DNA from: a virus
Lineage: Duplodnaviria > Caudoviricetes
Reading direction: 5' to 3' (one strand)
IMG/VR virus record: IMGVR_UViG_3300037418_002332
Length of the DNA stretch: 64,000 nt
Part shown: piece after piece, positions 16,216 through 44,216 of the stretch
Layout: every line of letters starts with the position of its first letter
How positions within the stretch are numbered: position 1 is the stretch's first letter
Made by a program: the position numbers and the translations under genes
Notes under the pieces: model-generated
Told to the model about the DNA's origin: nothing
What the model saw: the letters and a program-made list of their open reading frames with translations, nothing else
Databases searched by the model: none

Positions 16216-16824
16216 ATGTCAATAAACTTAAGAACCCTTGTTCTAAACCCAAACTTCATGCCTGTTTCTGTCTTCCCAGATCTTTACACGATCCCGGTTG
16301 AGGAATCAATTGCGCGTTATCTGAACGGCAATGCGGAAGTTGTGTTTTGGCACGATCGTTTTGTTTTGACACCATCGCGCCATGATTTGAGATGGCCATC
16401 AGTCATCATCAATAACAACACGCGTTCCTTCAAGAAAGAAATCAAGCTGAAGCGAAGCACTCTTTATTACAGAGACCACTGTCAGTGTGTTTACTGTAAT
16501 CGAGACATGAGCATCCACGAAATTACTTACGACCACGTTATGCCAAAAATCCGTGGTGGTGAGCACAAGTGGGAAAACGTCTCATTGGCTTGTAAGGAAT
16601 GTAATTCAAAGAAGGGTGACTCATTGCCAGTCGGTAAGTGGGAGCCAAAGCGAAAGCCATACACTCCTACTTTCTTTGACTTGCTTGAAAAGAGAAAGAA
16701 ATTTCCGATCTATGTCGATGATGAAAATTGGAAGCAATTTTTGCCAGGTTTCACCAACTTTGTTCTTCGGACCAACAAATTCAAGGTGGTTGCGAATGAA
16801 AACGAAATGGAAGATGCTGCTTAA
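16216..16824 (+). CDS. HNH endonuclease (McrA/HNH_5 type)
   Basis: RTLVLN, RDHCQCVYC, TYDHVMP..RGG.H.WENV.LAC..CN..KG. Confidence 0.88.
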   Translation: MSINLRTLVLNPNFMPVSVFPDLYTIPVEESIARYLNGNAEVVFWHDRFVLTPSRHDLRWPSVIINNNTRSFKKEIKLKRSTLYYRDHCQCVYCNRDMSIHEITYDHVMPKIRGGEHKWENVSLACKECNSKKGDSLPVGKWEPKRKPYTPTFFDLLEKRKKFPIYVDDENWKQFLPGFTNFVLRTNKFKVVANENEMEDAA

Positions 16825-16963
16825 GAATTCACTTGTAATTCTTTTGCTACTTTCAGGCTTATATGTGGCGTGGACCAGTAATCTAAACTGGCCCACGTCC
16901 AGTTTAATGACTGCTATTTTTGGCATATGGATATTCAATCTCATTGTGGAGATAATTGATTGA
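16814..16963 (+). CDS. small two-helix membrane protein
   Basis: 49 aa hydrophobic tail of track ORF 16553, starting at ATG 16814. Confidence 0.5.
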   Translation: MLLKNSLVILLLLSGLYVAWTSNLNWPTSSLMTAIFGIWIFNLIVEIID

Positions 16964-17406
16964 AATACATCATTTTGGATTTGGATGGTACAATTGCTTT
17001 GGGCGGTGAACGTCAAATTTTCTATTGGACCGAACCAAGAAATTGGAAAGCAGCAGTTGCAGGCATCATTTATGATGATGTAATTCAACCAACCAAAAAA
17101 CTGATTGAACTTTTTATTGCGGACGGATATTCAATCATTGTTCTAACAGCACGTCCTGCGAATTGTCGAAATAATTGTATTTCTTGGCTTGAACGTGTCG
17201 GCATTCCTTGGGTGGATATGTATCTTCGACATGACGATGATGATCGGGAAGACTATGTTATCAAGGAGGAGTTTCTTAAGGAAATGATTGATAAGTATGG
17301 CATGCCTGAGTTTGCTTTGGAAGACCAGCCGGAAGTGACAAGAATGTTCGCCCGGAATGGAGTTTTCACCTTTGGCATCAACCGACCAATTGGACCACAT
17401 CCTTGA
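16960..17406 (+). CDS. HAD-family phosphatase (T4 PseT 3'-phosphatase-like)
   Basis: DLDGT, LTARP, MYLR..DD.REDYVIKEE, LEDQP. Confidence 0.8.
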   Translation: MKYIILDLDGTIALGGERQIFYWTEPRNWKAAVAGIIYDDVIQPTKKLIELFIADGYSIIVLTARPANCRNNCISWLERVGIPWVDMYLRHDDDDREDYVIKEEFLKEMIDKYGMPEFALEDQPEVTRMFARNGVFTFGINRPIGPHP

Positions 17407-17734
17407 ATCAATCTTTGAGTCCTGTTTCAAGTACACTGAACGTAATCCAACAAAACCTATTCAACATTGGCTGAAAAGCAAGGCTCAATGTAAGAAATAC
17501 AAAACACTGGAGCTTTACCTAAAGCAAGATGGTAAATGTTACCATTGCGAAAAACCAATGCTTTACAAGGCAAATATTCATCATCCTTTGAAAACTAGTC
17601 TTGATCGAATCATTCCTGGATCATATGGTGGTGGTTACAAAATTAGCAATCTAGTTCTCTCCTGCATGACATGCAACAAGCAGCGTGGGGATAAAACCAT
17701 TGAAGAATACAATGAGTGGAAATCCGCCCAATAA
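17357..17734 (+). CDS. HNH endonuclease
   Basis: CYHC, SLDRIIP..YGGGY..SNLVLSCMTCN..RG; start uncertain. Confidence 0.75.
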   Translation: MEFSPLASTDQLDHILESIFESCFKYTERNPTKPIQHWLKSKAQCKKYKTLELYLKQDGKCYHCEKPMLYKANIHHPLKTSLDRIIPGSYGGGYKISNLVLSCMTCNKQRGDKTIEEYNEWKSAQ

Positions 17735-17749
17735 CACGCAAGATAATGC

Positions 17750-17778
17750 TTTTCTTTCTTCTCCAAATCAGGTATAAT
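17750..17778 (+). promoter_or_regulatory. early promoter
   Basis: TTTTCT-N17-TATAAT. Confidence 0.6.
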
Positions 17779-17817
17779 GTTTTTGTAAGTAGGAATTAAC
17801 TCTTCTGGAGAAATCCC

Positions 17818-18258
17818 GTGAAGCTCGTCATTGAAACCCAGTATAATGAGAACTATGGTGCTCACAACTGGAACGGTGAAGGTGAATGCCCGCAGTATTG
17901 GAAGAGCAAGGGTGGTTCGACATATGTTGTCGAAAATTTCGTGCCCGACTTTGATGACCTTTCAAATCAGGTTGCAAAGCTGATCGTGCTCGCCAAGATT
18001 GAGCATCGTGACGAAGCTTCTGAGGAATATGTGATCGACTGGACGGTCGAGGATGATTCCTATGAAACTCATAATGAAAAGCGCGATAACGAGCTCGAAG
18101 TTGAAGACGAGTACTATGCGAAGGATGTTCGCTGGTGGGATTACCGTCTGAACCAAGAAACTGGTGATCGCAGCCAGAAGTTCCGTGGGTATGATGGTAA
18201 GATCTACCTGCGCACTTGGCCGGTGAACGGTGAATTCTCAGAAAAGGAAATTGCATAA
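17818..18258 (+). CDS. conserved hypothetical phage protein
   Basis: MKLVIETQYNENYGAHNW.G.GECPQYWK.KGG; ggaga RBS, GTG start. Confidence 0.7.
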   Translation: MKLVIETQYNENYGAHNWNGEGECPQYWKSKGGSTYVVENFVPDFDDLSNQVAKLIVLAKIEHRDEASEEYVIDWTVEDDSYETHNEKRDNELEVEDEYYAKDVRWWDYRLNQETGDRSQKFRGYDGKIYLRTWPVNGEFSEKEIA

Positions 18259-18461
18259 TGGTTGCGGTTTGGGCAATTTTGAGCACTCCGTTTTGGTTGT
18301 TCTTTCTGTTTTGGACGTTCCTCGGGTGCTTTGCCAATGATATCACCATCAAGGGTAAGCAGGTTTATGGTTGGGAACGCATCGCGATGAGATTGATTGC
18401 ATTGATAATCGGTTTCGTCTGCGCTCTGATCGCCCTTTGGATGGATGGTGCCTTTGCATGA
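18258..18461 (+). CDS. small membrane protein
   Basis: two hydrophobic helices. Confidence 0.55.
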   Translation: MVAVWAILSTPFWLFFLFWTFLGCFANDITIKGKQVYGWERIAMRLIALIIGFVCALIALWMDGAFA

Positions 18462-37474: not shown

Positions 37475-37481
37475 CTAAATA
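37475..37481 (+). promoter_or_regulatory. T4-type late promoter candidate
   Basis: CTAAATA 27 nt upstream of ATG 37509. Confidence 0.55.
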
Positions 37482-37508: not shown

Positions 37509-37940
37509 ATGAAATATGCTATCTCAGAAATTTTAGAATTGGCTAATGAAGCATGGGGCAAAAAGCGTAAGATCGCTGCTCTTCATGAACATTCAGGACC
37601 TCAATTGAAAGTGATTCTCGATTATTGCTACAATCCAAACATCAAGTGGCTTGTCGATCCTGATATGAAATATGATCCATGTGACGATAATCTCAACTCC
37701 CTCCGTACTCGCCTGTTTACAGAAGCTGCCAGCCTTAACAGATTTGTAAACATTGGGCCTTATCCTACTCTCAATCAAAAGAAACGCGACCTGTTGTTCC
37801 AGACAGTGTTGGAAACAATCCATCCAAAGGATGCTGAGTTGCTCCAATTCATCGTGAAGAATCGCGCTCTTCCATACAACAAACTCAATAAGGAAACAAT
37901 CGCAGAAGCATTTCCAATTCTGTCACAAAACTGGGGATAA
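37509..37940 (+). CDS. conserved T4-superfamily hypothetical protein
   Basis: ISEIL...K.KIA.L...L..IL...Y.PNI.W...RL..E...F...KR..LF...LE.IHP.DAELL pattern, commonly next to rnh in T4-like phages. Confidence 0.7.
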   Translation: MKYAISEILELANEAWGKKRKIAALHEHSGPQLKVILDYCYNPNIKWLVDPDMKYDPCDDNLNSLRTRLFTEAASLNRFVNIGPYPTLNQKKRDLLFQTVLETIHPKDAELLQFIVKNRALPYNKLNKETIAEAFPILSQNWG

Positions 37941-37949
37941 CATTTTGTT

Positions 37950-38360
37950 ATGGCTAAAACATGGTGGTTGCGAAAACGGTTGACTCCAGATCAAAGGAGT
38001 GAACTTCGTACCGAAATAATGAAGGTTGACGTCGATGCATATTGGGAAGAGCACGAAACAGACAAATCTATCATTAGCCTTGGCCGGTTGAACACCTGGA
38101 TTCAACCGGATGAAAAAGGAACTGTGATAGTGTTCCAAGACAATTCATTATTTTCTCTTCGCAATTGGCAAGAAGTCGTCAAAATAACTGAGTTAGAATC
38201 AGGACCACTTTTAGCAATCAAACCTATTGGTGGAATTCATGTTGAAAATATTCGCTTGATTAAGAACCAAAAAGTTTCATTCAAAATACATTCAGACAAA
38301 TGGAAAAATTTTGATACATTGATTTTGTCTGAATGGTTCATAGCAGGATTTGATTTGTGA
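37950..38360 (+). CDS. tandem paralogue array member 1
   Basis: WWLRKRLTPDQRSEL...LILSEWFI. Confidence 0.7.
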   Translation: MAKTWWLRKRLTPDQRSELRTEIMKVDVDAYWEEHETDKSIISLGRLNTWIQPDEKGTVIVFQDNSLFSLRNWQEVVKITELESGPLLAIKPIGGIHVENIRLIKNQKVSFKIHSDKWKNFDTLILSEWFIAGFDL

Positions 38361-38752
38361 GTCATTGGTTCGTACAAAAATCCATTGCTGTTCGAGATCA
38401 TGTTGAACTACATAGACTTCTAACAAAAGCCGGAACCGTTTTTGAAGACCTCCTTTGGTATGAAACTGATGGCTATTCGGTGATCAGTTTCACAGGATTA
38501 TCTCAATGGTTGCTTGAGTGGAATAAACATTTCAGAGACGTCAAGGAATTGTATCTCATATATCATGATGAGGTAATTCCAAGACCTGTGAAGATTGATA
38601 AATTGGTGCAATTGGATAATGCAATTCAATTCCACTATGAGCTTGGTTTTAGAAACGTTCGTGACCGACAAATTGTTAATCTTCATCTGAAGCATATAGA
38701 TTGGGATTTTGTCATTCATTTAGAAGATTGGGAAGTGGTTAGAGTGGACTGA
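38357..38752 (+). CDS. tandem paralogue array member 2
   Basis: HWFVQKSIAVRDHVEL...VIHLEDWEV. Confidence 0.7.
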   Translation: MSHWFVQKSIAVRDHVELHRLLTKAGTVFEDLLWYETDGYSVISFTGLSQWLLEWNKHFRDVKELYLIYHDEVIPRPVKIDKLVQLDNAIQFHYELGFRNVRDRQIVNLHLKHIDWDFVIHLEDWEVVRVD

Positions 38753-39156
38753 TGATATCTGAGTGGCGCATTCAAAAATATTTGACGCTTCCTCAACGAA
38801 CCGAATTGACCAAAATGATTGGCGGTTGGTTACTAGTTGATATGTTTGATGATCAAACAGATAGCTACATCAGTTGCGCAATGTTTGATGAATGGGCTAG
38901 AATGTACGGTGATCGGGCTATTATACATGTTTGGTGGAAAGATGCGACAAAAATTTGGCACGAAAGAAAATTTCGTGGATTTGAAGAAGGCAGATCATCA
39001 GGTAAACTGTTTGCAAATATCTTTGATGTCAATGGAAAAGAATCTTCTATGCTATTTAATGTCGGAAGCGATATCTCAATGTCCGTTGAACTTGATACAT
39101 GGCCGAATGAAATTTTGTTTCTCGAACATTGGAAAGTTGGGAAGGGCAGACAATAA
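38752..39156 (+). CDS. tandem paralogue array member 3
   Basis: EWRIQKYLTLPQRTEL...ILFLEHWKV. Confidence 0.7.
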   Translation: MISEWRIQKYLTLPQRTELTKMIGGWLLVDMFDDQTDSYISCAMFDEWARMYGDRAIIHVWWKDATKIWHERKFRGFEEGRSSGKLFANIFDVNGKESSMLFNVGSDISMSVELDTWPNEILFLEHWKVGKGRQ

Positions 39157-39554
39157 TGTATCATTGGTACATCAGAAAACCTTTGTATGATCAGGATCAC
39201 GAGGAGTTGGGCAAACATTTTTTAGCTGGCTATCGTCGTGAAAAAGATGATGAAGGTGATTGGTATTCTCAACTTGATATTGAAATATTGATGAAAATGA
39301 TTGATATGCCAGAATTGTTAGAAGTGAAAGTTTTTCATCTTCCAATTTTTGATCGTTTGATGAAATTAAAAATGATTACTGATGAAGGTGATTTGTTACA
39401 CTTCCAAATTTGGGATCAAGAATTACAAAGAACTCGAGTGATAGATATTGCCTACGGTGAAGGAATTTCAGTATCAATTGATTTGTTAAAACAAACCGAT
39501 TTCTTGTTATATCTTGAAGGTTGGACATTGGGTAGAAAATGGGTTGGACGATAG
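39156..39554 (+). CDS. tandem paralogue array member 4
   Basis: HWYIRKPLYDQDHEEL...LLYLEGWTL; TAATG start 39156. Confidence 0.7.
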   Translation: MYHWYIRKPLYDQDHEELGKHFLAGYRREKDDEGDWYSQLDIEILMKMIDMPELLEVKVFHLPIFDRLMKLKMITDEGDLLHFQIWDQELQRTRVIDIAYGEGISVSIDLLKQTDFLLYLEGWTLGRKWVGR

Positions 39555-39925
39555 TCAAAGTTCTTAGCAATTCTCTTACGGATGATTTCAACAATCATTT
39601 CAAAGGAAAGAGCATTTCCAAAGTTAATGAAATGACTGCCTATGAATCAGAAGCGATCATTTTCTTGGAATCATTCGTGACTTTGACCAGTAAACATACT
39701 GATGAATTTGCTTGTTATTTGTATGAAGAGGACAAAAAGTACAAAATTTCTTCAATTAAACATTCAAGACAATTTGTCGATTTTGAACTTTTTCCACCTG
39801 CACTACCAACTGGTGATGAATATAGAACATATGAACACGGTGATGTGATAAATTTGGAATTGGAAACAAGTGACCTTTCTGTGTTTCTTGAAAACTGGGT
39901 TCTGTTGAATGAGGACGGCAGATGA
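39539..39925 (+). CDS. tandem paralogue array member 5
   Basis: GWTIVKVLSNSLTDDF...SVFLENWVL. Confidence 0.7.
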   Translation: MGWTIVKVLSNSLTDDFNNHFKGKSISKVNEMTAYESEAIIFLESFVTLTSKHTDEFACYLYEEDKKYKISSIKHSRQFVDFELFPPALPTGDEYRTYEHGDVINLELETSDLSVFLENWVLLNEDGR

Positions 39926-40209
39926 AAATCTCAGGCAAAACAGTTGATTACAAAATTGTGGTAGATGAGGTGTTCGAATTCATCGACACCCATGGTTTGC
40001 CATTAGATTATGTATTGACTTATCTTCATGAACGTAATATGGAAATGGACTGGCTTGCGTTCTTCTTAGATGCTAAGAAAGCCGGTTGGAATATCTCAAC
40101 GATCAAATCGAAAAGTATGGCTGCTGTCGCTGATGCGTTCGGTGGTCGTTCCGTCAGGACACTGGCGATAAATGACAGAATTGCTAAAGCATTGGACCCA
40201 TTCTTATGA
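39922..40209 (+). CDS. small protein resembling an alanyl-tRNA synthetase helical fragment
   Basis: VFEFIDTHGLPLD...ERNMEMDW..F resembles AlaRS AF.LYDTYGFPLD...E.G..VD..GF. Confidence 0.55.
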   Translation: MKISGKTVDYKIVVDEVFEFIDTHGLPLDYVLTYLHERNMEMDWLAFFLDAKKAGWNISTIKSKSMAAVADAFGGRSVRTLAINDRIAKALDPFL

Positions 40210-40766
40210 AAACTGCATTGATTATTGGAAACGGTGTTTCCCGGAAAAAACTCAATCTGCATGCTTTACCGCCTGAAGGTTTCACAACCTTTGGGTGCAA
40301 CGCATTATATCGAGAGTTCACTCCTGATTGGTTAGTGGCCTTGGACGATAAAATCATTGAGGAGATCAATCAATCCGATTTCCCCAAGGATCGCTTCTAT
40401 GTACCGCCTTTCGATGAGCAGTTCGAGCCTGCCATATACAATCCCAGTCGGCCTAGGGAGAACGCTGGCATGATCGCTATGCGTTTGGCGATCCAGCTAG
40501 GTTATGATAATTTAGAGCTCATAGGATTGGATTTTTTGGTGGAAGATGGCGTGCTGAATATGGCTAACATTTATGATGGCACGAATGCCTATGGGCCTGA
40601 AACACGGGCAAGTTATTTTGATTGCATTATGCGTTCTGAATATTTCAGATGGTTTGTTAAACAAAATCCGACTGTGAAGTTCAAGGTTATCTATCCTGAA
40701 AGTTTTATCACCGACCATGCTGTACGTGTGGCTCCAATGGACAATTTTGAATATGCGGTGTTCTGA
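40206..40766 (+). CDS. DUF115/Maf/GT29-like Rossmann-fold protein
   Basis: ALIIGNGVSR, FGCNALYR, LVALD, LELIGLDF. Confidence 0.65.
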   Translation: MKTALIIGNGVSRKKLNLHALPPEGFTTFGCNALYREFTPDWLVALDDKIIEEINQSDFPKDRFYVPPFDEQFEPAIYNPSRPRENAGMIAMRLAIQLGYDNLELIGLDFLVEDGVLNMANIYDGTNAYGPETRASYFDCIMRSEYFRWFVKQNPTVKFKVIYPESFITDHAVRVAPMDNFEYAVF

Positions 40767-41173
40767 TGTTTTACATTTTCAAGGAAATTCCTATTTGGGA
40801 TGTTGCAACAGACCTTGAAAAAATTATTGCCAAATCCCATGTCACAATTTTGGGTGACATGGTACGCATTGATTTAAGCAGTTCTTTAGCGGTTATGTTG
40901 GAAGTAAGAAATTATGTTGGCTATTTTCTTGCTGAAGGTCAACGATGGAAAATTGATTATCATGCCCCCACCACACCAGAATTTGCTCAATTGATGTTTG
41001 GTCGTGGTGATGGAAAGCCGGCATATTATGTCACTGGGGTTTCAGAAAAGAATAAGGAAAAGAAAACTCATTACATTCTGAATGAAACTTTGACCACATT
41101 TGAATTTGAAAATGATTATCAACATATCGTTTTTGAAGATTGGCTAGCAAAGGATATTCCTCTTGAGCGCTGA
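40766..41173 (+). CDS. tandem paralogue array member 6
   Basis: FYIFKEIP...DL...HIVFEDWLA. Confidence 0.65.
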   Translation: MFYIFKEIPIWDVATDLEKIIAKSHVTILGDMVRIDLSSSLAVMLEVRNYVGYFLAEGQRWKIDYHAPTTPEFAQLMFGRGDGKPAYYVTGVSEKNKEKKTHYILNETLTTFEFENDYQHIVFEDWLAKDIPLER

Positions 41174-41561
41174 AGTTAATGTTGAACTTTGCAAATTCAT
41201 ACATCCTGACAGTGCACAGGAATTGATGGAACATCTTTATGATCCATCGAAAATCGTATCAGACGTCGTCAATATGAAATACACTTTGTATATTCCTTGG
41301 CGGACTTTAATCCAAGAATCAGTACAATTGCGTGCTGAACTTCTCATAAAACGTATTGACACGCTTGATTTCGAAAAACTCACTGGTTGGAAAGCTTATA
41401 GAGTTAAAAAGTTTAGTGGTTCATATGAAGAATTTTGCGTAAGGACCAACTACGATGATGAATGGTTTTCTTATAGAACTAGTCAATTGATTACTGTGAG
41501 ATTGAAATATTATTCTGATCTCATTATTGATTTGGAAGATTGGGGCATTTCATGTACATAG
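41163..41561 (+). CDS. tandem paralogue array member 7
   Basis: VELCKFIHPDSAQEL...IIDLEDWGI. Confidence 0.7.
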   Translation: MSAEVNVELCKFIHPDSAQELMEHLYDPSKIVSDVVNMKYTLYIPWRTLIQESVQLRAELLIKRIDTLDFEKLTGWKAYRVKKFSGSYEEFCVRTNYDDEWFSYRTSQLITVRLKYYSDLIIDLEDWGISCT

Positions 41562-41923
41562 TGAAAACAATGGATAGAGAAGCTGCTAGAGAACTCAACA
41601 AATTATTGTATATGGATGTAACATTTTACGATAATGACTCTGACGAAGTTCAGGTGAAAATTCATCATTCTGATATACTCAATCCATTGAATGATGGATT
41701 TCAGCAGTTGATATTCAAACAGAAAATGCCAAATGGTTTGAATATGGATTATGAAATTTCAACACTTTCCGAAGATAACACCTTTGATAATGCTCATTTG
41801 GTATTGCATGACATGGCTGGTGATCCATTAGCCAGCTTTTCTCGTGGTTCGGATTGGAATTGTATAATCCATACAAATAAACATATGATTGAACTTGAAG
41901 ATTGGGTTATTGACGACGCATGA
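41549..41923 (+). CDS. tandem paralogue array member 8
   Basis: MYIVKTMDREAAREL...MIELEDWVI. Confidence 0.7.
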   Translation, partial: FMYIVKTMDREAARELNKLLYMDVTFYDNDSDEVQVKIHHSDILNPLNDGFQQLIFKQKMPNGLNMDYEISTLSEDNTFDNAHLVLHDMAGDPLASFSRGSDWNCIIHTNKHMIELEDWVIDDA

Positions 41924-42291
41924 GTATTTTCATCTGGAAATACATCGCTGGTGTTAACGTTGAACAATCAAGGGAAATACATAACACATTTCCCTACATG
42001 ATCACAAAATGGAATGAAATGTCATACGATTTGTATTTTGATGATTTGTTGAAACATTGGGATATCTATCTGAAGATGTCAGATGAACCTAGATACATCA
42101 GAAATGTACGCGAAGCTGACAACAAAGATTTAACTGTTGGACATATGTTCATCATTGAGTTTGTTAATCCTTTGTTAAGTGATTTCAAACTTTGGTATGG
42201 TGATGATCATGATTATATTTTGAAATCGAAAAAGACTGGTGAAGTCGTTCACCTTGAAGAATGGTCAATTGGAAATAATATTGAAACATGA
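41920..42291 (+). CDS. tandem paralogue array member 9
   Basis: IFIWKYI...EQSREI...VVHLEEWSI. Confidence 0.7.
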   Translation: MSIFIWKYIAGVNVEQSREIHNTFPYMITKWNEMSYDLYFDDLLKHWDIYLKMSDEPRYIRNVREADNKDLTVGHMFIIEFVNPLLSDFKLWYGDDHDYILKSKKTGEVVHLEEWSIGNNIET

Positions 42292-42707
42292 AACCACAAT
42301 TGTTTCTTCAAAAGACTTTAACTCAATCTCAATATGATGAGTGGACTAGCCATATTCCGGCGAAATATTTCAACAAAATGTATGCAACAAATCCCAATGG
42401 TCAAAGAATAGTTTTGATTGAATTTGAAGTCATTGAATACTGGAAACATTTGATGTTTGGAAATGACGGTTCGAATTCAGTAAAAATTCACATAATAGGG
42501 GAATGGCACTCAATTGTTAAATTTGATATTTTGACTTATCCTGACAAACCAGAAAAATATGGTATCCAAACTCAATTGATGTCTCCACTAGGAGCATATT
42601 CCAATTATTCTCATCATTATCAAGATCAAATGGAATTTAGAAATATCAGATTTTTAATTGGTAACCTAACAATTGAGCTTGATAAATGGAGAATGGTTAT
42701 ATCATGA
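42288..42707 (+). CDS. tandem paralogue array member 10
   Basis: LFLQKTLTQSQYDEW...TIELDKWRM. Confidence 0.7.
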   Translation: MKPQLFLQKTLTQSQYDEWTSHIPAKYFNKMYATNPNGQRIVLIEFEVIEYWKHLMFGNDGSNSVKIHIIGEWHSIVKFDILTYPDKPEKYGIQTQLMSPLGAYSNYSHHYQDQMEFRNIRFLIGNLTIELDKWRMVIS

Positions 42708-43120
42708 AACGCATTATCCTAGTCAAAAAGATGAAGTTTTTGACATTTATGATGCTTAGTCGTACTCTTGAAGGTGCAGGTGTCACTTTATCTTCAAATG
42801 AAACTCCAATTGGTTATTCTGATGTCTACATTGATTTTGAAAAACTTTCGAAATATGTCAATCAAAGGGATGAATGCATTTGGTTCGGAACTAGAGTTAT
42901 GGATGGTCTTCCACCAAATTATAATTTTAGAACTGAAGAAGTTACTCATAGAGTATCAAGCGATGGTACCGATAAACTTGGTTGGGATTTAATAAGTAGC
43001 AAAACCGCCAGTCATGGTGTCAGAAAAGAAGTATATGATCCATTGAGAACATATTGCTTTAGAATTGAAGGTCCTGATCGAATAGTTGATCTGGAAGATT
43101 TCACTATAGAACTCAGATAA
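42704..43120 (+). CDS. tandem paralogue array member 11
   Basis: IILVKKM...L...IVDLEDFTI; ATGA start 42704. Confidence 0.65.
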   Translation: MKRIILVKKMKFLTFMMLSRTLEGAGVTLSSNETPIGYSDVYIDFEKLSKYVNQRDECIWFGTRVMDGLPPNYNFRTEEVTHRVSSDGTDKLGWDLISSKTASHGVRKEVYDPLRTYCFRIEGPDRIVDLEDFTIELR

Positions 43121-43122
43121 AA

Positions 43123-43129
43123 CTAAATA
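43123..43129 (+). promoter_or_regulatory. T4-type late promoter candidate
   Basis: CTAAATA 17 nt before ATG 43147. Confidence 0.55.
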
Positions 43130-43146: not shown

Positions 43147-43395
43147 ATGCCTAATTATAACTTCTACGATCCTAAAACTCGCAAAACTGTAACTTTGGAA
43201 ATGAAAATTTCCGAGTTAGACACATTTCTCAAAGACAATCCTCATTTACAACAAACTCTTCAACCTATTCCATCAGTTGATCCTCATGCTGTAGGCAGAA
43301 CACGCACAGATTCGCGGTTCAGAGATGTGTTGAAAAAGATAAAGCGAGACCAACCAGGATCTACCATTCGTACTGATAATATAACTGAAATCTAA
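43147..43395 (+). CDS. conserved T4-superfamily small protein (FmdB-like N-terminus without Cys)
   Basis: MPNYNF.D..T......M.ISE...FLKDNPHL; gagga RBS. Confidence 0.7.
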   Translation: MPNYNFYDPKTRKTVTLEMKISELDTFLKDNPHLQQTLQPIPSVDPHAVGRTRTDSRFRDVLKKIKRDQPGSTIRTDNITEI

Positions 43396-43430: not shown

Positions 43431-44216
43431 ATGTTAAATTCAGATCTAAAACAAAAATCATACCTATCTGATGAGGAAATTGAACAATTCTTCGATACAC
43501 CTAGAAAGGCTCGCAAAGGCAAAAGAAATAAGCAAGAGGCTGCACCTGCTCCTCATTATGGTTTGAAAGAAATTTCCCCGTTGACTAGAACGCAGGCAGA
43601 AATTTTTGAGTCATATTTCAATTCAAATCAAAATATGTTTCTTCATGGTTACGCAGGCACTGGTAAATCCTTTATATCCTTGTATTTGCTCATGTCGCAA
43701 ATGATGAATGATTCCTCATTCAAGAAGTTGAAAATTGTTAGATCAACTGTTCCAAGTCGTGACCAAGGTTTCTTGCCTGGTTCCGCTGCTGAAAAAGCGA
43801 AGATTTATGAAGCTCCTTACCAAGCAATCTTCACTGAATTGTTTGGTCGTTCCGATGCCTACGATTATTTCAAACGTCGTGGTTTGGTAGAATTTGAAAG
43901 CACTTCATATCTTCGTGGTACAACTTGGAATGATACGCTGGTTTTGTTTGATGAATTTCAAAACACCAGTTATAATGAAGCTATGACAGTTTTGACCAGA
44001 ATCGGTGACAACTGCCGTATCATTGTTTCCGGTGACTTCCATCAAACTGACTTGAAACGTGATGACGAAAAACGTGGTATCCTTGATATCATCAAAATTT
44101 TGAAGAAAGTCAATCTTGTTGATTTCTTTGAATTCAAGAAAGAAGACATTGTAAGAAGTGGGTTCGTTCGTGAACTCATCCTAGCTGAGGCGAAATATAA
44201 ATTTGAGAAGTCTTAA
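43431..44216 (+). CDS. phoH: PhoH-family ATPase
   Basis: HGYAGTGKS, IVRS, GFLPG..EK, YLRG.T, DEFQN, TRIG, SGD..Q.DL, DIVRSG.V. Confidence 0.95.
   Translation: MLNSDLKQKSYLSDEEIEQFFDTPRKARKGKRNKQEAAPAPHYGLKEISPLTRTQAEIFESYFNSNQNMFLHGYAGTGKSFISLYLLMSQMMNDSSFKKLKIVRSTVPSRDQGFLPGSAAEKAKIYEAPYQAIFTELFGRSDAYDYFKRRGLVEFESTSYLRGTTWNDTLVLFDEFQNTSYNEAMTVLTRIGDNCRIIVSGDFHQTDLKRDDEKRGILDIIKILKKVNLVDFFEFKKEDIVRSGFVRELILAEAKYKFEKS

Follow-up and report, generated by a model that had tools for sequence, protein, structure and literature searches.

The DNA examined here is a 64,000-nucleotide (nt) stretch, hereafter the window, which corresponds to bases 105197-169196 of the genome of an uncultured soil T4-like jumbo phage (IMG/VR record IMGVR_UViG_3300037418_002332; 247,119 bp, 39.8% guanine plus cytosine (GC), CheckV completeness 97%). 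Eleven intact plus-strand open reading frames (ORFs) of 123-144 amino acids (aa), or 123-139 aa with the internal ATG starts of two of them (a4 and a11), tile positions 37950-43120 of the window. We found that these ORFs and three others elsewhere in the genome very probably form one family, expanded by tandem duplication and fast divergence, in which both ends of the protein are conserved. An earlier reading of the stretch, made from the sequence alone (the sequence-only reading), had described the ORFs as hyper-divergent paralogues with only terminal motifs in common and, judging from the comparisons below, this description is accurate.

Shared ends and divergent middles

An N-terminal pattern (aromatic/hydrophobic-x-K ... 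E-L) was seen in all eleven array ORFs, as the sequence-only reading had quoted it. The C-terminal motifs that it had quoted, LSEW in the first ORF through LEDF in the last, likewise read exactly so in all eleven. We applied a loose regular expression for the C-terminal motif to the last 20 residues of the 202 genome ORFs of 100-170 aa. Sixteen ORFs matched, 12 of which were family members. Since only four non-members matched among the 202, the background is about 2%, and a run of eleven consecutive matches is far beyond chance. Leave-one-out profiles were built from the last 35 residues, the first 35 residues or the middle (30 residues trimmed from each end) of the fourteen members, and the held-out member was ranked among 914 ORFs. 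Using the last 35 residues, the held-out member ranked first in 8/14 cases and within the top three in 10/14, and with the first 35 residues it ranked first in 6/14. Profiles of the middles gave ranks of 26-377, which amounts to no signal. The array members, all on the plus strand, are as follows (pLDDT, predicted local distance difference test).

37950-38360, plus strand: a1, 136 aa, C-terminal motif LSEW; N-terminal leave-one-out rank 1
38357-38752, plus strand: a2, 131 aa, LEDW; leave-one-out rank 1 at both ends; AlphaFold pLDDT 66
38752-39156, plus strand: a3, 134 aa, LEHW; supported by ORF, motif and leave-one-out; carries the single-nucleotide polymorphism at 38959
39156-39554, plus strand: a4, 132 aa from the ATG at 39156 (141 aa from the TTG at 39129), LEGW; the database gene call starts at 39156
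39539-39925, plus strand: a5, 128 aa, LENW; supported by ORF, motif and leave-one-out
40766-41173, plus strand: a6, 135 aa, FEDW; C-terminal leave-one-out rank 3, full-length profile weak
41163-41561, plus strand: a7, 132 aa, TTG start, LEDW; C-terminal leave-one-out E 8e-7
41540-41923, plus strand: a8, 127 aa from the TTG at 41540, LEDW; AlphaFold pLDDT 73; an alternative ATG at 41552 also preserves the N-terminal motif
41920-42291, plus strand: a9, 123 aa, LEEW; C-terminal leave-one-out rank 1
42288-42707, plus strand: a10, 139 aa, LDKW; N-terminal leave-one-out rank 1, C-terminal block weak
42704-43120, plus strand: a11, 138 aa from the ATG at 42704 (144 aa from 42686), LEDF; supported by motifs, length and position, profile weak

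At the level of whole sequences the relationship is faint. No pair was individually significant by phmmer (best E ~0.03 in a 927-ORF database), and iterative phmmer/hmmsearch (E 1e-3), started from every member in turn, brought in none of the others. The top three phmmer matches of a2, a3 and a4 among the 927 ORFs were all family members, and BLAST aligned a1-a5 to one another over their full length. Comparison of a1-a5 with a6-a11 by hhalign gave P 6e-4 at equivalent N-terminal columns, and comparison with the second, three-member cluster gave P 0.07-0.1 at equivalent C-terminal columns; reversed controls gave 0.18-0.79. The sequence-only reading had held that a lack of profile similarity beyond chance would speak against a family, and what we found was that the end-block profiles recovered members and that hhalign beat the reversed controls. 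The leave-one-out profiles, the comparisons of hidden Markov models (HMMs) against reversed controls, and the same order of terminal secondary-structure elements in two AlphaFold models bear out one family with conserved ends and unrecognisable middles. Identity between copies lies below 25%, and specific charged and aromatic residues are kept across the members, which are soluble, Trp-rich, mildly acidic proteins of ~130 residues (isoelectric point (pI) 4.5-7.0).

The codons of the C-terminal motif keep 70-84% nucleotide identity over 19-33 nt between copies and are the sole DNA-level repeat in the array (38700-38732, 41125-41143, 41512-41549, 41885-41911 and 43074-43100). At the a7/a8 junction, the TTG start of the next gene lies inside this conserved stretch.

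Predicted structure of the ends

As the sequence-only reading had suggested, structures were predicted, here singly for a2 and a8, which come from different halves of the array. The AlphaFold model of a2 (pLDDT 66) contains strand 3-9, helix 12-24, strands 33-35 and 40-44, helix 45-58, a low-confidence middle, and strands 105-113 and 118-130. That of a8 (pLDDT 73) contains strand 5-12, helix 13-23, strand 36-42, helix 43-46 and six further strands, and ends in strands 105-112 and 116-126. Both models thus start with a strand and helix and finish with a hairpin, and in both the ends have the highest pLDDT. Around the C-terminal motif the sequences run through a conserved alternating strand, then a polar turn, then another strand that bears L-E-D-W, which suits a structural hairpin better than a free tail. 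From these two medium-confidence models and the conservation pattern we infer that the members have one fold, whose constant framework consists of the N-terminal strand-helix ([WFY]-h-h-x-K-x-h ... E-L) together with the C-terminal beta-hairpin (h-x-h-x-h, turn, h-h-x-L-E-D-W-x-h). The two ends probably pack against each other in such a fold, and the invariant Lys of the first strand and the Glu/Asp-Trp of the last strand may hold it together.

Further copies and population variation

A search with the family profile revealed a twelfth member at genome 29677-30117, whose two neighbours have the same architecture. These three members (135, 146 and 128 aa) lie outside the window at genome 29313-30460 (L001 2314-3461), ~114 kb upstream of the array, between a 479-aa GH108/peptidoglycan-binding/M15 protein and an ATP-dependent DNA ligase. 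A six-frame search of the whole genome yielded exactly 14 members, of 123-146 aa. A similar strand pattern is seen at the end of a 78-aa ORF at L001 3723-3959, which may therefore represent a truncated copy.

The array region was present at ~100% identity in seven soil or rhizosphere metagenome runs, with the genotype intact. Over 7.7 kb the sole difference from other metagenome copies was a C>T change at 38959, which converts His70 of a3 to Tyr. Contigs from four soil runs carried the same genotype and no copy-number variant. No RNA dataset was among the sequencing runs that carry the array.

Searches for relatives, named families and folds

When the 14-row family profile was compared by HMMER with 1.84 billion (1.84e9) representative proteins, 14 matches were returned, all from the phage itself or a near-identical strain. 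This result excludes close relatives elsewhere, and does not exclude equally diverged ones, because held-out members score too low for so large a database. The sequence-only reading had recognised no named family, and the database searches were empty as well. Scans of at least 10 members against Pfam-A, PHROGs and PADLOC-DB gave nothing at the cut-off (best E 0.0055-0.08, to unrelated families), and the family profile gave a best E of 0.22 against PDB sequences. Blastn and tblastn of the array and a2 against INPHARED phages found no match, and neither did the family profile in five large, distantly related T4-like IMG/VR records.

Structural searches were similarly negative. Foldseek returned nothing at E <= 0.001 for a2 against PDB and BFVD or for a8 against BFVD and AFDB clusters, an ESM Atlas feature search with a2 gave no usable match, and VIA-align and Atlas shape searches gave no significant or reproducible match. 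Two candidate assignments were considered and not adopted. LAGLIDADG-like entries appeared among the Atlas shape matches of a8 at a template modelling (TM) score of ~0.4; the a2 model gave no such matches, and we do not assign the family on this basis. For the N-terminal strand-helix, a ribbon-helix-helix fold was suggested by a single VapB-like Pfam match at E 0.06; the models lack a directly following second helix and no ribbon-helix-helix family recurs.

The array occupies two variable slots in a conserved backbone

The genes and signals that surround and interrupt the array are listed below, all on the plus strand.

37475-37481, plus strand: CTAAATA late-promoter-type motif (sequence match), 34 nt upstream of the DUF6433 gene start
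37509-37940, plus strand: DUF6433 gene, 143 aa, conserved backbone, directly 5' of the array (Pfam PF20025, E 1.6e-13)
39922-40209, plus strand: 95-aa non-member gene inside the operon (weak alanyl-tRNA-synthetase-fragment match, PF01411, E 4e-5)
40206-40766, plus strand: 186-aa conserved backbone gene between the two expansion slots (306 homologues, identity up to 60%)
43123-43129, plus strand: second CTAAATA (sequence match), 3 nt past the array stop and 24 nt upstream of the 82-aa gene
43147-43395, plus strand: 82-aa conserved backbone gene closing the second slot (orthologues precede phoH in relatives L005, L006, L010 and L011)
43431-44216, plus strand: phoH (Pfam PhoH match, E 7e-42)

Only 9 nt separate the DUF6433 stop from a1, and neighbouring ORFs within the block overlap by 1-22 nt. 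These overlapping starts and stops make a1-a5, the 95-aa gene, the 186-aa gene and a6-a11 a single uninterrupted, translationally coupled block of 13 genes; the tiling that the sequence-only reading had noticed was found as it had listed it. In each of the eleven array ORFs, codon usage is of the coding type in frame 0, and the statistics of the other two frames are non-coding. The AT-richness that it had remarked upon was also evident, with 31-39% GC in the array (23-35% at third codon positions) against 41-44% in the two embedded genes and 39.8% in the genome. It had further described the array as split 5+6 by two unrelated genes. The split itself held, and the two genes are not plain intruders, because the 186-aa gene belongs to the conserved backbone.

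This became clear from related-phage contigs, which we reached via homologues of the DUF6433 and 186-aa genes and whose backbone genes are 46-60% identical to those of this phage. The RNase H of the phage itself has at most 38% identity to that of cultured T4-like phages. The backbone order common to the relatives is rnh, DUF6433, 186-aa gene, 82-aa gene, phoH and PD-(D/E)XK nuclease; DUF6433 follows rnh in L003-L006 and L010-L012, and the 186-aa gene, which keeps its position in relatives, is conserved in every related contig examined. In the present phage the order is rnh-DUF6433-[slot 1]-186aa-[slot 2]-82aa-phoH, such that the slots flank the 186-aa gene. Both slots are empty in relative L005. 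Unrelated small genes occupy them in L004, L006 and L012, among which is a GIY-YIG endonuclease gene in L006. Slot 2 of L010 and L011 contains a Y00F-family gene, a 195-aa gene and, in tandem, two or three ORFs of ~130-150 aa. None of the slot ORFs of the relatives was a significant match to the family profile. Since the slots are empty or otherwise filled in relatives, the array represents a lineage-specific filling of two hyperplastic slots, which answers the comparison of array content across related phages that the sequence-only reading had proposed.

To the eye, the tandem paralogues of 129-135 aa in L010 (4075-4903) and L011 (8572-8961), which lie after the 186-aa gene and before the 82-aa gene, look like the family. 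Their length is similar, hFITK stands at the N-terminus, and the C-terminus is a strand-turn-strand that finishes with I-x-x-P. In comparisons with the family, hhalign gave P 0.08 (reversed control 0.38) and these ORFs ranked no better than third among 411 ORFs, and we do not claim homology. They may be distant counterparts of the family, a statistically unproven suggestion. Metagenome and viral contig collections yielded no further relatives of them. Relative L006 carries two other tandem triplets (174-1587 and 16819-18369) of 153-161-aa paralogues with an N-terminal DVDF motif, indicating that small tandem families recur in this phage group.

Expression signals

The CTAAATA late-promoter candidate at 37475 had been pointed out by the sequence-only reading. 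It was present, and no convincing plus-strand terminator was found between it and the second copy at 43123. Genome-wide, CTAAATA occurs 23 times on the plus strand and 5 times on the minus strand. A 639-aa sheath-like ORF and the 572-, 272-, 402- and 451-aa ORFs in the same block have CTAAATA or TATAAATA at a distance of 24-40 nt upstream. The N-terminus of the 639-aa ORF resembles T4 sheath, and on that resemblance we take the block to be one of late genes. Because the same motif precedes the sheath-like gene and other large genes of this late-gene block by 34-40 nt, the late-promoter call is sound, and the spacing of the copy at 37475 is typical. A late-type motif followed by no convincing terminator makes late transcription of the operon plausible and would be compatible with earlier transcription too.

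A proposed repertoire of binders on a constant scaffold

We propose that tandem duplication followed by fast divergence generated the copies, the family having expanded in this lineage specifically in the two hyperplastic slots on either side of the 186-aa gene. The constant ends would frame one fold, within which the ~80 residues between them have diverged beyond recognition. The copies would then constitute a repertoire of intracellular binders presenting different surfaces on a common scaffold, and their targets would be host proteins, engaged for takeover or for counter-defence. The sequence-only reading had put forward a panel of inhibitors or decoys against host defence proteins, which is likewise a conjectural function. 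The portion of this explanation that concerns the family and its evolution has, in our judgement, a high probability. The explanation as a whole, including function as intracellular binders, is offered tentatively, as one that we consider possible and just short of probable.

Several observations weigh against it. The searches produced no function-bearing homologue, fold match or partner, and the step from family to binders would be taken by analogy only. Classical early anti-defence genes are no better a fit to a late promoter than proteins with a virion or late function would be. Full-length leave-one-out profiles fail to recover the members a6, a11, b1 and b3, whose homology comes down to short motifs, length and position. 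The AlphaFold models are of medium confidence and were computed from a 14-row alignment. Conservation of the K, E and E/D residues might reflect a common ligand or active site instead of a scaffold. Finally, a single genotype is available for judging diversifying selection.

The copies could instead be internal or ejected proteins packaged in the virion, with the N-terminus serving as a head-targeting signal and the variable bodies acting in the next host. In T4, IPI, IPII, IPIII and the polymorphic ip locus have a capsid targeting sequence at the conserved terminus, and the T4-type prohead-protease site follows the rule L/I-x-E. Like the T4 internal proteins, the array members are small, share a terminus ahead of otherwise unrelated bodies, and are encoded in a plastic T4-type locus reachable by late transcription; their operon lies behind a CTAAATA spaced like those of the sheath-like and other late-block genes, with no terminator following. 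Paralogous inner-head proteins have also been described in giant phages (PMC5694885). However, only the first ten residues are conserved in the T4 internal proteins, whereas both ends are conserved here, and an equally conserved C-terminus is left unexplained by a targeting peptide. In both models the N-terminal motif forms, with the highest confidence, an integral beta-strand and helix belonging to the core rather than a propeptide that could detach. Three residues ahead of the conserved Glu, the members have R, H, A, S or Y in place of the L/I of the protease site. The members are mildly acidic (pI 4.5-7.0), and T4-like genes often have late promoters besides early ones. The analogy with T4 internal proteins that the sequence-only reading had drawn is therefore weakened by the structured N-terminus, the missing L/I-x-E pattern and the mild acidity, while the sound CTAAATA call speaks for it, and we regard this alternative as unlikely. 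A different role would have the C-terminal L-E-D-W imitate a polymerase tail, such that the copies dock on or compete for the clamp gp45 and bring different bodies to replicating or late-transcribed DNA. T4-type gp43, gp33 and gp55 have C-terminal clamp-interaction tails, and the array members have a comparable L-E-D-aromatic core near the C-terminus. In the present phage, the 843-aa DNA polymerase (genome 224375-226906) ends in DSLEDFFN and three DNA-modification enzymes (genome 81266-82603, 89689-90672 and 91865-92512) end in LADFFN, LEDFFN and LDDFFS, while the polymerases of relatives L008 and L009 keep DSLEDFFS although the preceding residues differ. By sequence, these endings fit a shared clamp-interaction tail. 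Five family members have exactly LED followed by W or F, and the remainder are one-residue variants. Unlike clamp tails, which carry L-x-x-aromatic-aromatic at the extreme C-terminus, the array motif lies 5-11 residues from the end, has one aromatic and no second, and is followed by a conserved hydrophobic position. A conserved strand-turn precedes it, and both models place it in the latter of the two hairpin strands. This internal position and the hairpin model make it look like buried core and not a free tail, and the resemblance is a four-residue match noticed after the fact. Complex prediction for a gp45 trimer with a8 gave a score of 0.00 with the fold of the partner itself at pLDDT 31-34, and counts neither way. 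We consider clamp-directed copies distinctly unlikely. A slightly more doubtful version would make the C-terminal hairpin a structural mimic of the DSLEDFF tail, with which all 14 proteins dock on gp45 as diversified clamp-tethered adaptors or competitors; if it were true, the set would link a variety of activities or host targets with replication or late transcription.

Two further alternatives deny either the common fold or the function. Unrelated small proteins might have converged on or recombined the same terminal tags, for instance for a common chaperone, protease or assembly partner. The lack of any significant pairwise comparison, the absence of signal in the middles, and the coincidence of short nucleotide repeats of 27-33 nt with the C-motif codons would agree with such tags. 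They would not account for the uniform lengths of 123-146 aa, the conservation of both ends in register, or the full-length BLAST links among a1-a5. The conserved stretch is also a whole strand-turn-strand, and two members from different halves have the same end topology, which leaves this reading very improbable. Alternatively, the copies could be decaying, functionless duplicates, remnants of genome growth in a jumbo phage whose capsid has room to spare. The family is AT-rich, fast-diverging and absent from relatives, and jumbo phage genomes have been proposed to grow by tandem duplication (PMC5646251). However, 14/14 frames are intact with coding-type codon usage despite <25% identity, start-stop coupling is preserved throughout, and specific charged and aromatic residues are retained; we give decay the least credence of all. 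Both the tag and the decay readings are unlikely, given the register, uniform lengths, intact frames and retained residues.

Comparison with known gene arrays

In the gene 'accordions' and Bcl-2-like multigene families of poxviruses, copy gain is followed by divergence until only the fold remains. Under selection, T4 readily gains tandem copies of the counter-defence gene tifA (Srikant et al. 2022, PMC9391042). These examples indicate how an array like the present one would begin and the purpose that such arrays tend to have, a gain in copy number of a host-directed gene. Unlike the recent, identical tifA repeats, the copies described here are ancient and diverged.

Tandem arrays of similar genes have been reported in jumbo phages G and 121Q (Hua et al. 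2017, PMC5646251). Like the arrays of phage G and Escherichia phage 121Q, the present array is head-to-tail, on one strand, tightly packed, unannotated and lineage-restricted, and is read as the product of tandem duplication. It shows the same-strand adjacent copies, shared ancestry and variable site content in relatives by which lineage-specific tandem multigene families of jumbo phages are recognised. Unlike the 'very similar' genes of those arrays, the copies here are recognisable only over ~20 residues at each end, and the family occupies three separate sites, with no relative detectable beyond this phage. The protein family itself is undescribed, whereas orphan small paralogues packed tightly in tandem have already been published for the large phages G and 121Q. 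The array alone opens no long-standing question. Arrays of orphan small genes recur in large phages, a pattern suggestive of a general strategy, and this array is one more case of it; the locus shows hyperplastic slots between core T4 genes filling by local duplication and not by import alone. If the binder repertoire is real, the family would provide a compact natural scaffold in which ~40 conserved residues carry ~80 freely varying ones, as well as fourteen probes for host targets of soil T4-like phages.

The embedded genes

The 186-aa gene belongs to a large unannotated family of T4-like phages (306 database matches, many of them marine) and has no Pfam domain except a faint sialyltransferase-like N-terminus. 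For the 95-aa gene, the PF01411 match (E 4e-5) is below the curated cut-off and is to the middle of alanyl-tRNA synthetase. A similar-looking 109-aa ORF occurs in a relative at L008 2503-2832, in a genomic context different from that of the 95-aa gene.

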